Assembly: GCF_003334355.1 (NCBI RefSeq)
Contig: NZ_QOWP01000019.1
Length of the DNA stretch: 64,000 nt
Strand: one strand, 5' to 3'
Source of the DNA: Escherichia coli
Lineage (GTDB): Bacteria > Pseudomonadota > Gammaproteobacteria > Enterobacterales > Enterobacteriaceae
Positions 22,480-30,406 of the stretch are shown here, one piece after another. Made by a program: the position numbers and the translations under genes. The notes beneath the pieces were generated by a model that did not search any database, was not told the DNA's origin, and worked only from the letters and a program-made list of their open reading frames with translations. Every line of letters starts with the position of its first letter. Position 1 is the first letter of the stretch.

Positions 22480-23844
22480 TTGATTACACATATTAGCCCG
22501 CTTGGCTCCATGGATATGTTGTCGCAGCTGGAAGTGGATATGCTTAAACGCACCGCCAGCAGCGACCTCTATCAACTGTTTCGCAACTGTTCACTTGCCG
22601 TACTGAACTCCGGTAGTTTGACCGATAACAGCAAAGAATTGCTGTCTCGTTTTGAAAATTTCGATATTAACGTCTTGCGCCGTGAACGCGGCGTAAAGCT
22701 GGAACTGATTAATCCCCCGGAAGAGGCTTTTGTCGATGGGCGAATTATTCGCGCTTTGCAGGCCAACTTGTTCGCGGTCCTGCGTGACATTCTCTTCGTT
22801 TACGGGCAAATCCATAACACCGTTCGTTTTCCCAACCTGAATCTCGACAACTCCGTCCACATCACTAACCTGGTCTTTTCCATCTTGCGTAACGCTCGCG
22901 CGCTGCATGTGGGTGAAGCGCCAAATATGGTGGTCTGCTGGGGCGGTCACTCAATTAACGAAAACGAGTATTTGTATGCCCGTCGCGTCGGAAACCAGCT
23001 GGGCCTGCGTGAGCTGAATATCTGCACCGGCTGTGGTCCGGGAGCGATGGAAGCGCCGATGAAAGGTGCTGCGGTCGGACACGCGCAGCAGCGTTACAAA
23101 GACAGTCGTTTTATTGGTATGACAGAGCCGTCGATTATCGCCGCTGAACCGCCTAACCCGCTGGTCAACGAATTGATCATCATGCCAGATATCGAAAAAC
23201 GTCTGGAAGCGTTTGTCCGTATCGCTCACGGTATCATTATCTTCCCTGGCGGTGTGGGTACGGCAGAAGAGTTGTTGTATTTGCTGGGAATTTTAATGAA
23301 CCCGGCCAACAAAGATCAGGTTTTACCATTGATCCTCACCGGCCCGAAAGAGAGCGCCGACTACTTCCGCGTACTGGACGAGTTTGTCGTACATACGCTG
23401 GGCGAAAACGCGCGCCGCCATTACCGCATCATCATTGATGACGCCGCTGAAGTCGCTCGTCAGATGAAAAAATCGATGCCGCTGGTGAAAGAAAATCGCC
23501 GCGACACTGGTGACGCTTACAGCTTTAACTGGTCAATGCGCATTGCACCAGATTTGCAAATGCCGTTTGAGCCGTCTCACGAGAATATGGCTAATCTGAA
23601 GCTTTACCCGGATCAACCTGTTGAAGTGCTGGCTGCCGACCTGCGCCGTGCGTTCTCCGGTATTGTGGCGGGTAACGTAAAAGAAGTCGGTATTCGCGCC
23701 ATTGAAGAGTTTGGTCCTTACAAAATCAACGGCGATAAAGAGATTATGCGTCGTATGGACGACCTGCTACAGGGTTTTGTTGCCCAGCATCGTATGAAGT
23801 TGCCAGGCTCAGCCTACATCCCTTGCTACGAAATCTGCACGTAA
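22480..23844 (+). CDS. ppnN: Nucleotide 5'-monophosphate nucleosidase (LOG family)
   Basis: 454-aa ORF with LOG-family PGGxGTxEE motif ([11 protein letters not shown]). Confidence 0.93.
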
Positions 23845-24400
23845 TCTCCCCTCCCCCGGTGACGTTTGTTGCCGGGTTTTCTCGTTTTTGGTCACTTACT
23901 CATCAACTCATTTCATTTGTTATATGAATGTTTCTTACCACCCTCACGCGACAAATATCATCACAGTTAATATGTCATACAATTTATATTGCAACGCAAA
24001 CGTTTCCCTATTTTCATAAACCGTATTTTATCGCTATGAAAAAGAAATTATCGCCATGATTAACTAAAAGTATTGATTTTTTCAGTTCAACCTACATATA
24101 TTGCGCGCCCCGGAAGAAGTCAGATGTCGTTTAATGGGCAAATATTGCCCTTAAATTCTCTTTTACTTTTAATTTACAGAGTAAAGCGTTGGGATAATCT
24201 ATCTTCCAAGTAGATTATTGTATTTGGGATCAAGATCACTGATAGATACATAACTTGTGTGTATCTTTCCGCCCTCAAATTATTACGGCGGTAAATGATT
24301 AAGCCATCGCCGATAGACAGATTTCATTTTTACGGTCAGGCACCTTCCCGGGCTGAACTGGCTAAAAGCTGAATTATTTGCATTCCTCCAGGAGAAATAG

Positions 24401-25690
24401 ATGGAAACGACTCAAACCAGCACGATTGCGTCGAAAGACTCTCGTAGTGCCTGGCGCAAGACAGACACCATGTGGATGCTGGGCCTTTACGGCACGGCAA
24501 TCGGCGCGGGCGTGCTGTTCCTGCCAATCAACGCCGGTGTTGGCGGTATGATCCCGCTGATCATCATGGCTATCCTTGCGTTCCCGATGACGTTTTTTGC
24601 TCACCGCGGCCTGACTCGCTTCGTACTGTCTGGTAAAAACCCGGGCGAAGACATCACCGAGGTTGTAGAAGAACACTTTGGTATTGGCGCAGGTAAACTG
24701 ATTACCCTGCTCTACTTCTTCGCTATCTACCCGATCCTGCTGGTTTATAGCGTGGCAATCACCAATACCGTTGAAAGCTTCATGTCTCACCAGCTGGGTA
24801 TGACGCCACCGCCGCGTGCGATTCTGTCGCTGATCCTGATCGTGGGTATGATGACCATCGTTCGCTTCGGTGAGCAGATGATCGTTAAAGCGATGAGTAT
24901 TCTGGTATTCCCGTTTGTTGGCGTACTGATGCTGCTGGCTCTGTACCTGATCCCGCAGTGGAACGGCGCTGCACTGGAAACGCTGTCTCTGGACACTGCA
25001 TCTGCAACCGGAAACGGTCTGTGGATGACCCTGTGGCTGGCAATTCCGGTAATGGTGTTCTCGTTCAACCACTCTCCGATCATCTCTTCTTTCGCCGTTG
25101 CGAAGCGTGAAGAGTACGGCGATATGGCAGAACAGAAATGCTCGAAGATCCTGGCATTCGCACACATCATGATGGTGCTGACCGTAATGTTCTTCGTCTT
25201 CAGCTGTGTACTGAGCCTGACTCCGGCAGACCTGGCTGCGGCTAAAGAGCAGAACATCTCGATTCTGTCTTACCTGGCTAACCACTTTAACGCACCGGTT
25301 ATCGCGTGGATGGCTCCGATTATCGCGATTATCGCTATCACCAAATCCTTCCTCGGTCACTACCTGGGCGCACGTGAAGGCTTCAACGGTATGGTGATTA
25401 AATCTCTGCGTGGTAAAGGTAAGTCTATCGAAATCAACAAGCTGAACCGTATCACTGCGCTGTTCATGCTGGTAACGACCTGGATTGTTGCCACCCTGAA
25501 CCCGAGCATCCTGGGTATGATTGAAACCCTGGGCGGTCCAATCATCGCGATGATCCTGTTCCTGATGCCGATGTACGCAATTCAGAAAGTACCGGCAATG
25601 CGTAAGTACAGCGGTCACATCAGCAACGTATTCGTTGTCGTGATGGGTCTGATTGCAATCTCCGCAATCTTCTACTCTCTGTTCAGCTAA
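24401..25690 (+). CDS. sdaC: Serine:H+ symporter
   Basis: 429-aa polytopic membrane [49 protein letters not shown]. Confidence 0.96.
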
Positions 25691-25747
25691 GTCCTTTCGC
25701 GCCGCTTTCGGGCGGCGCTTCCTCCGTTTTAACGCGATGTATTTCCT

Positions 25748-27115
25748 ATGATTAGCGTATTCGATATTTTCAAAATCGGCATTGGCCCTTCCAGTTCTCA
25801 TACCGTTGGACCAATGAAAGCGGGTAAACAATTTACCGACGATCTGATTGCCCGTAACCTGCTTAAAGACGTGACCCGCGTGGTGGTTGACGTGTACGGC
25901 TCGCTCTCTCTGACCGGTAAAGGCCACCACACTGATATCGCCATTATTATGGGCCTGGCGGGTAACCTGCCGGATACCGTGGATATCGATTCCATCCCTG
26001 GTTTTATTCAGGATGTGAATACTCATGGTCGCCTGATGCTGGCAAACGGTCAGCATGAAGTGGAGTTCCCGGTTGATCAGTGCATGAACTTCCATGCAGA
26101 CAACCTTTCTCTGCATGAAAACGGTATGCGCATTACCGCGCTGGCGGGCGATAAAGTCGTTTACAGCCAGACTTACTACTCTATTGGCGGTGGCTTTATC
26201 GTTGATGAAGAGCATTTTGGCCAGCAGAATAGCGCACCGGTTGAAGTTCCTTATCCGTACAGTTCAGCAGCCGATCTGCAAAAACATTGTCAGGAAACCG
26301 GGCTGTCACTCTCTGGCCTGATGATGAAAAATGAGCTGGCGCTGCACAGCAAAGAAGAGCTGGAACAGCACCTGGCGAACGTCTGGGAAGTCATGCGCGG
26401 CGGTATTGAGCGCGGTATTTCTACCGAAGGCGTGTTGCCTGGCAAACTGCGCGTACCACGCCGTGCTGCGGCACTACGCCGGATGCTGGTCAGCCAGGAT
26501 AAAACCACCACTGACCCGATGGCGGTTGTTGACTGGATCAACATGTTTGCACTGGCAGTGAACGAAGAGAACGCCGCTGGCGGTCGCGTGGTGACTGCGC
26601 CGACTAACGGTGCGTGCGGGATTATCCCGGCTGTGCTGGCGTACTACGATAAGTTTATCCGCGAAGTGAACGCTAACTCACTGGCTCGTTACCTGCTGGT
26701 AGCCAGCGCCATTGGTTCTCTTTATAAGATGAACGCGTCAATTTCTGGTGCTGAAGTCGGCTGCCAGGGTGAAGTTGGTGTGGCGTGCTCAATGGCGGCG
26801 GCTGGTCTGGCAGAACTGTTAGGTGCAAGCCCGGCGCAGGTGTGCATCGCGGCGGAAATCGCCATGGAGCACAACCTCGGTCTGACGTGTGACCCGGTCG
26901 CCGGACAGGTCCAGGTGCCATGCATCGAGCGTAACGCCATTGCGGCAGTAAAAGCGGTGAACGCCGCACGTATGGCGCTACGCCGTACCAGCGAGCCGCG
27001 CGTCTGCCTCGATAAAGTTATCGAAACCATGTACGAAACAGGTAAAGATATGAACGCCAAGTACCGCGAAACCTCTCGCGGCGGCCTGGCAATGAAGATC
27101 GTTGCCTGCGATTAA
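25748..27115 (+). CDS. sdaB: L-serine deaminase II
   Basis: 455-aa ORF MISVFDIFKIGIGPSSSHTVGPMKAG, Fe-S L-serine dehydratase. Confidence 0.97.
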   Translation: MISVFDIFKIGIGPSSSHTVGPMKAGKQFTDDLIARNLLKDVTRVVVDVYGSLSLTGKGHHTDIAIIMGLAGNLPDTVDIDSIPGFIQDVNTHGRLMLANGQHEVEFPVDQCMNFHADNLSLHENGMRITALAGDKVVYSQTYYSIGGGFIVDEEHFGQQNSAPVEVPYPYSSAADLQKHCQETGLSLSGLMMKNELALHSKEELEQHLANVWEVMRGGIERGISTEGVLPGKLRVPRRAAALRRMLVSQDKTTTDPMAVVDWINMFALAVNEENAAGGRVVTAPTNGACGIIPAVLAYYDKFIREVNANSLARYLLVASAIGSLYKMNASISGAEVGCQGEVGVACSMAAAGLAELLGASPAQVCIAAEIAMEHNLGLTCDPVAGQVQVPCIERNAIAAVKAVNAARMALRRTSEPRVCLDKVIETMYETGKDMNAKYRETSRGGLAMKIVACD

Positions 27116-29860: not shown

Positions 29861-30406
29861 TAGCTACCTCTCTCTGATTCAAAACAGGGCAATAATGTTG
29901 TTCCTTTCACACTATTGAATTAGCCGTTTAATTACCCACCATCTTCTTCCTGATTAACCAGAAAGAAATTCACAAGCTTATATTTTGTGACATGGTTCAA
30001 CTAATCACAGTAAATAACTGCAAGTTCTCTTTTTATAACCCCATTAAAAATGACCGCTCTTAAAAATATTTATCAAAACGGTCATTTTTCTATTCACCCA
30101 AGCCAGGAATGCCCGTTTTCGGCATAAACAATTAATACGGTCATCTGGTTTGTGTTTTTTATGATTTATTTTCTGAAACGGGCATGAAATTTCGATTATT
30201 AAAGTGATGGTAGTCACATAAAGTCACCTTCCAGCTAATAAGTGTGACCGCCGTCATATTACAGAGCGTTTTTTATTTGAAAATGAATCCATGAGTTCAT
30301 TTCAGACAGGCAAATATTCACTGATATGAAGCCCGAACTCGCTGGTTTTGCACTTTTGAAAACATAACCGATTACGTGCTTAAGCTTCTGAACCTAAGAG
30401 GATGCT
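29861..30406. promoter_or_regulatory. Divergent fucAO / fucPIKUR control region
   Basis: 546-bp AT-rich intergenic region between divergently oriented fucA and fucP; individual sites not resolved. Confidence 0.6.

Follow-up and report, generated by a model that had tools for sequence, protein, structure and literature searches.

The 556 bp that separate ppnN from sdaC in Escherichia coli most probably represent the composite, already-studied control region of the sdaCB operon, an ordinary regulatory region that would hold neither a small RNA (sRNA) gene nor a conserved leader peptide. In the arrangement that we put forward, ppnN transcription ends at an intrinsic terminator, and two YieP operators precede a weak distal sigma-70 promoter (predicted start near 24109), which would act independently of CRP and in its present form appears limited to Escherichia and Salmonella. 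Lrp-like motifs would lie downstream of the distal promoter, and a CRP site at −41.5 would replace the −35 element of a proximal promoter (predicted start ~24274), the probable ancestral core promoter, which all the sampled genera possess. Transcripts from both promoters would share a 127-nt leader with an A-rich-loop hairpin (HP1) and, in most genera but weakly in E. coli, a second helix (HP2). This leader would end at an AGGAG ribosome site, which is masked by the Hfq-dependent sRNA ArcZ, so that translation is repressed. The terminator 3′ end, the YieP sites, the in vivo binding of CRP, the promoter-up mutations and the repression by ArcZ come from published work; the conservation, spacing and covariation were computed here. 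Most of the gap's length is DNA-level control sequence, which the earlier note on this DNA had not considered.

The window is the whole 64,000-nt stretch that was analysed; adding 2,903,828 to a window coordinate gives that of MG1655 (U00096.3), the sdaC ATG at 24401 being 2,928,229. The ppnN stop codon TAA occupies 23842–23844, and the gap thus spans 23845–24400, exactly 556 bp. Its GC content is 37.8% against 51.3% for the window, and only 1.3% of all 556-bp segments of the window are equally or more AT-rich. Of the some 49 intervals that separate long ORFs along the window (median 59 bp), it ranks third in size; one of the two larger gaps carries CsrB and the other is a divergent control region (29861–30406). 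The description of this region as AT-rich, unusually long and 556 bp in length is thus borne out, and so is the earlier remark that it holds no ORF of credible size, the longest inside it reaching 43–46 aa and all of them lacking credible signals. RefSeq annotates nothing inside the gap, in MG1655 as elsewhere.

The gap is present in a single copy in each of 5426 complete E. coli genomes (5426/5426), which rules out mobile or repeated DNA as its content, and the 851 bases around it are 95–100% identical in all of these, between annotated ppnN and sdaC. The order ppnN–sdaC is kept in 76 of 80 Enterobacteriaceae species loci, where the gap measures 436–648 bp. Strain AR_0061 is identical to the window across the 851 bp, and a single base distinguishes the window from MG1655, at ~23864 in the ppnN 3′ UTR (C in the window, G in the published MG1655 term-seq sequence). 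In one clinical isolate (E. coli 23AR0151, NZ_CP195448.1; locus L083), an IS903B insertion replaces the right part of the gap and the beginning of the adjoining gene, sdaC being annotated there as a pseudogene; this amounts to a natural knock-out of the sdaC control region. The coordinates of the features discussed below are collected in table 1.

Table 1. Features of the ppnN–sdaC gap, in window coordinates.
Feature	Position	Strand	Basis or remark
ppnN intrinsic terminator	23855..23886	+	9-bp GC-rich stem-loop (23855–23876), then U-tract; pattern scan
YieP binding site 1 (ATTTGTTATATGAAT)	23915..23929		Sequence from PMC8282354, located in the window
YieP binding site 2 (ATATGTCATACAATT)	23970..23984		Site from PMC8282354, located in the window
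7-codon ORF of the earlier note	24036..24059	+	Judged non-functional
Distal sigma-70 promoter	24073..24102	+	TTGATT (24073), 18 bp, TATATT (24097–24102), then GC-rich discriminator GCGCGCCCC
29-codon upstream ORF (MSFNGQILPLNS...)	24124..24213	+	In distal leader; SD-like GGAAGAAG upstream
Local hairpin	24130..24155	+	Palindrome GGGCAAATATTGCCC (24136–24150), then U-rich stretch (to 24175)
Lrp-like motif, ACAG-containing, conserved	24176..24192		Alignment conservation; Lrp consensus matched by eye only
CRP site ATTTGGGATCAAGATCACTGAT	24222..24243		Centre 24232.5; conservation and ChIP-seq
Second CRP-like sequence TGATAGATACATAACT	24240..24255		Listed for the same ETEC ChIP-seq peak at sdaC
Proximal −10 hexamer TATCTT	24262..24267	+	Invariant spacing from CRP centre
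Proximal 5′ UTR	24274..24400	+	127 nt in E. coli (predicted start); 105–132 nt in other genera
HP1	24286..24312	+	7-bp stem CGGCGGU (24286–24292)/AUCGCCG (24306–24312); 13-nt A-rich loop (24293–24305)
ArcZ pairing site	24388..24398	+	Overlaps AGGAG (24390–24394); predicted seed pairing

When 77 gaps are aligned with MAFFT, the best-conserved stretch is 24207–24300, followed by the ribosome site. The pattern TGnGATC-NN-GATCACT occurs upstream of sdaC in exactly one copy in 78 of 78 loci, and the proximal hexamer reads TATCTT in 70 loci, TACATT in five and TATCGT in three, its T1, A2 and T6 being invariant, so that TAnnnT is found in all 78. The distance between the CRP centre and the first base of the hexamer (−12), 29.5 bp, is unchanged in every one of these loci (78/78), and this spacing puts CRP at −41.5 of the predicted start, that is, in class II geometry. 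A separate −35 element is missing from this promoter, the corresponding position being occupied by a CRP half-site; the predicted start falls on a C, which is uncommon as an initiating nucleotide. Other genera are identical to E. coli at 0.88 over the CRP 22-mer and at 0.93 over the hexamer and discriminator, compared with 0.81 for the last 30 nt of ppnN and 0.84 for the first 30 nt of sdaC. Variation is confined to base 3 of TGnGA, the two bases at the centre of the site and positions 3–5 of the hexamer. Since these are positions where CRP and sigma-70 tolerate change, and compensatory changes are missing, the constraint appears to act on DNA and not on RNA.

Binding data point to the same site. 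The CRP ChIP-seq data of ETEC H10407 list, for the peak at sdaC, AGTGATCTTGATCTCA, which is the reverse complement of the CRP site; the second CRP-like sequence listed there is poorly conserved in other genera. The site, as TGGGATCAAGATCACT, agrees with the CRP consensus TGTGA-N6-TCACA at 8 of 10 specified bases. Matches to this consensus with two mismatches are not enriched in the window (26 found, 26 expected), so that the argument for the site draws on conservation, spacing and ChIP-seq instead. The supplements of Mendoza-Vargas (2009) hold no start-site entry for sdaC. The arrangement resembles class II CRP promoters of the galP1 and melR type, with which it has in common a TGnGA-N6-TCACT-type site over the −35 region centred 29.5 bp before TAnnnT, in vivo CRP binding and catabolite control of the operon. 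Unlike in these, the sdaC start is a prediction and a CRP-independent promoter lies 165 bp upstream, so that the sdaC CRP site would also fall inside a transcribed leader. The recognition that the invariant core consists of a CRP site, placed as in class II promoters, and the −10 that goes with it, which the E. coli literature that we searched does not single out, is a modest addition.

The distal promoter is the sole sigma-70-like match returned by a promoter scan of the gap; its start is predicted at 24107–24112, giving a leader of ~292 nt. Experimental evolution of a cya mutant yielded insertions at MG1655 2927924 (+A) and 2927928 (+ATT), which raise sdaC expression and permit growth on serine. 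These map to window positions 24096 and 24100, inside the distal −10, which argues that the distal promoter is real and weak in its native form.

Upstream of this promoter, the two YieP sites were described by Freddolino and colleagues (PMC8282354) from an IPOD-HR and ChIP-exo peak, gel shifts, and lacZ fusions in which scrambling of the sites had reporter effects. Site 1 is not conserved beyond Escherichia (identity 0.03). According to the same work, an EcoCyc Lrp site lies ~200 bp downstream of the YieP peak, hence near 24178, and the conserved ACAG motif near 24177 might represent this Lrp site. A TTTTACAG motif (24079–24086) is likewise conserved. The ppnN–sdaC spacer is also among the sequences that genomic SELEX yielded for the nucleoid protein Dan, as fits AT-rich DNA.

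Taken together with published expression data, these features suggest a division of labour in which the distal promoter, with YieP, would serve in nutrient-rich glucose medium and the proximal promoter, with CRP, under carbon limitation. In rich glucose medium, sdaC mRNA reaches ~20 times the level seen in minimal medium or in stationary phase (PMC8282354). Its abundance in rich glucose, where cAMP is low, calls for a CRP-independent promoter and suits the YieP-associated distal one, and the reported CRP activation of sdaCB, described at the operon level, suits the proximal one. The same scheme would explain why selection in the cya background fell on the distal −10, since the proximal promoter without cAMP-CRP has no substitute for a −35.

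In an alternative scenario, the distal promoter would act alone, all sdaC mRNA would carry the 292-nt leader, and 24207–24300 would be an RNA element or a CRP roadblock. We consider this improbable. The distal −10 is indeed the only promoter element that has been manipulated experimentally, and the long leader folds somewhat better than its shuffled versions, if marginally (z = −1.8; 6 of 100 shuffles as good). However, only Escherichia and Salmonella retain the distal −35, and the aligned TAnnnT hexamer survives in a minority across genera, whereas the 24207–24300 block is invariant in all genera. Moreover, that block varies just where CRP and sigma-70 tolerate change, with no compensation, its spacing agrees exactly with class II geometry in all 78 loci, and CRP is reported as a positive regulator.

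With predicted leaders of 127 nt and ~292 nt, and a leader hairpin that covaries across genera, the long 5′ UTR suggested by the earlier note is upheld. The 127-nt leader as a whole does not fold with unusual stability (z = +0.82), and RNAalifold on the plain MAFFT alignment of leaders returned no helix, because stem positions shift between genera. HP1 was instead analysed by folding each leader separately, by swapping its arms between species and with a covariance model. It is seen in 38 of 43 non-redundant leaders, reaches −9 kcal/mol in E. coli, and has a loop of 13–20 nt that is A-rich in nearly all genera. Outside E. coli its stem takes the forms UUACGG/CCGUAA, UUGCGG/CCGCAA, UUACAG/CUGUAA, GCGUUGG/CCAGCGC, GGUAUCGG/CCGGUACU and ACGGGC/GCCCGU. 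Cognate arms pair at −5.5 kcal/mol compared with −3.6 for arms swapped between species (permutation p ~5e-5, with a statistic that ignores phylogeny), and a covariance model built from nine sequences places HP1 at the homologous position in 55 loci. In the resulting alignment 79.5% of cells pair and double changes occur in all 9 pairs; the covariation is 0.308, against 0.178 after shuffling (reached by 0 of 500 shuffles) and 0.02–0.14 with slid partners, the alignment having been fitted to the structure, which favours the score. We read HP1 as a real RNA feature, and this covarying leader hairpin with its A-rich loop is a small new point.

The HP2 helix is found in many genera, with arms such as GUCAGG/CCUGAC, AUCAGG/CCUGAU, GUCGGG/CCCGAC and GCCAGU/ACUGGC. 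Its support is modest, with a covariation of 0.280 versus 0.180 (1 of 500 shuffles does as well) when 15 of 26 sequences, chosen by eye, are aligned without gaps; E. coli retains just 4 bp of this helix. As to function, the most economical guess is that HP1 might serve as an Hfq docking or stability element. The (AAN)n Hfq sites of the rpoS leader offer a partial parallel, sdaC also having an A-rich element upstream in its leader; unlike in rpoS, the A-rich stretch of sdaC is presented in the loop of a covarying hairpin, and Hfq binding is putative. A bolder proposal, which we find possible but rather unlikely, is that HP1, HP2 and the conserved AAUUUCAUAUUAC linker of other genera form an undescribed cis-regulatory RNA module, and that sdaCB is naturally driven mainly by the invariant promoter of class II CRP type rather than by the distal one annotated in E. 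coli. If so, the HP1 module could be a dock for Hfq or another protein that sets the repression of serine uptake by ArcZ or other sRNAs.

At the 3′ end of the leader, the AGGAG ribosome site lies 6 nt before the sdaC ATG, and the seed of processed ArcZ (UUUCCCUGG, from MG1655) is predicted to pair with CCAGGAGAAAU across it. This agrees with the published ArcZ–sdaC pairing at −13 to −2, and over-expressing ArcZ in E. coli brings sdaC mRNA down to ~0.21. The CLASH supplements give no coordinates in the sdaC leader. With tpx and STM3216, sdaC has in common the seed pairing of this Hfq-dependent sRNA across the ribosome site. The proposal of an sRNA controlling sdaC was therefore right as to the control and mistaken as to the gene, given that the sRNA is ArcZ, which is encoded elsewhere and pairs within the gap. 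Also at the ribosome site, an invariant CCTCCAGGAG (24388–24392) contains the Dcm site CCAGG and sets an anti-SD-like CCUCC directly beside the SD.

The short ORFs of the gap were also considered. The earlier note had offered a leader peptide as one possible content of the gap, with a 7-codon ORF as its example of a short ORF. That ORF lies upstream of both promoters, and its aligned start codon is found in 1 of 76 relatives. The 29-codon ORF of the distal leader is probably not a functional leader peptide: its ATG at 24124 is kept in 24 of 76 relatives, the ORF varies from 2 to 29 codons, and the 29-aa product has four scattered Ser residues and no Ser run. A further ATG, at 24295 within the loop of HP1, opens an ORF of 25 codons; 6 of 76 relatives retain it. 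In the other genera (loci L005–L081), a GC-rich block, ATGGTAGCCTTCGCGCCC(G/A)TAAAT, aligns to 24133–24156 with a majority-base frequency of 0.82 and reads M[VIL]AFAP[VI]N in 59 of 77 loci. Its codon-position entropy (0.74/0.58/0.59) shows no third-position excess and none of the 59 loci matches a ribosome site for it, so that a leader peptide is rejected and the block is better regarded as a nucleotide-level motif. It has diverged in Escherichia, the window having the palindrome GGGCAAATATTGCCC in its place; as a protein site or attenuator, this palindrome was set aside, since it is not kept in other Escherichia loci. With no conserved start, ribosome site or coding signature among the short ORFs, the idea of a leader peptide is not sustained. 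On the opposite strand, a 613-codon ORF (24374–26215, −) runs antisense to sdaC and the first part of sdaB, probably as a side effect of codon composition.

A related scenario, attenuation, would have translation of the 24124–24213 ORF melt the hairpin at 24130–24155, which would otherwise stop distal transcripts at the U-rich tract. The hairpin is unusually stable for its composition (−9.5 kcal/mol, z = −3.1), precedes a U-rich stretch and is overlapped by the ORF, of which many genera have an orthologue of 10–13 codons. In thrL, pheL and ivbL, too, a short ORF overlaps a hairpin and U-rich tract upstream of an amino-acid-related operon. Nevertheless we judge attenuation very unlikely. To the sparse conservation of the ATG, the flat codon-position entropy, the missing ribosome sites and the lack of a serine codon run must be added that other Escherichia loci (L002, L004) already carry an altered 5′ arm of the hairpin, that the tract fails the terminator scan and that term-seq lists no 3′ end there. 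Unlike thrL, pheL and ivbL, the sdaC leader thus has no regulatory codon run, conserved start or ribosome site, and neither an alternative antiterminator pairing nor a mapped termination point.

The 3′ ends of the region speak to the remaining possibility. The ppnN terminator folds at −14.9 kcal/mol (z = −3.7), and published term-seq data give ygdH (ppnN) a 3′ end at MG1655 2927709, which corresponds to window 23881. Scanning the gap revealed no terminator besides this one, the published term-seq data list zero 3′ ends between 23881 and the sdaC ORF, and Rfam gave no match in the gap at the gathering score and, up to E = 10, only two chance snoRNA matches (E ~8–9). That the gap, although long, conserved and unannotated, encodes an independent unannotated sRNA, as had been suggested, is scarcely credible, given that its sole intrinsic terminator is that of ppnN, that neither Rfam nor term-seq provides anything relevant past it, and that its conserved parts are accounted for by protein binding sites and the mRNA leader.

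Some observations on the surroundings may be added. The next term-seq 3′ end is at window 24522 (MG1655 2928350), 121 nt inside the sdaC ORF, and the 5′ leader together with the first 40 sdaC codons could exist as a short transcript. A GC-rich hairpin (25691–25735, −16.4 kcal/mol) lies between sdaC and sdaB, where a strong term-seq 3′ end (MG1655 2929551, window 25723) is located 25 nt before sdaB; together they suggest partial termination or processing within the operon. Elsewhere in the window, Rfam matches correspond to CsrB (20328–20687, −), GcvB (38868–39073, +), the ES036 (CssrF) sRNA (42089–42131, −) and a tRNA (43559–43632, +).

With these results the ppnN–sdaC region drops off the list of candidate loci for new sRNAs or leader peptides, and the base-level map joins scattered reports on CRP, Lrp, YieP, ArcZ and promoter-up mutations into one two-promoter model. 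For work on Hfq targeting, the conserved hairpin of the leader offers a modest lead. The operon concerned governs the uptake and breakdown of serine and, through these, growth on peptides, lysis on starvation and gut colonisation.
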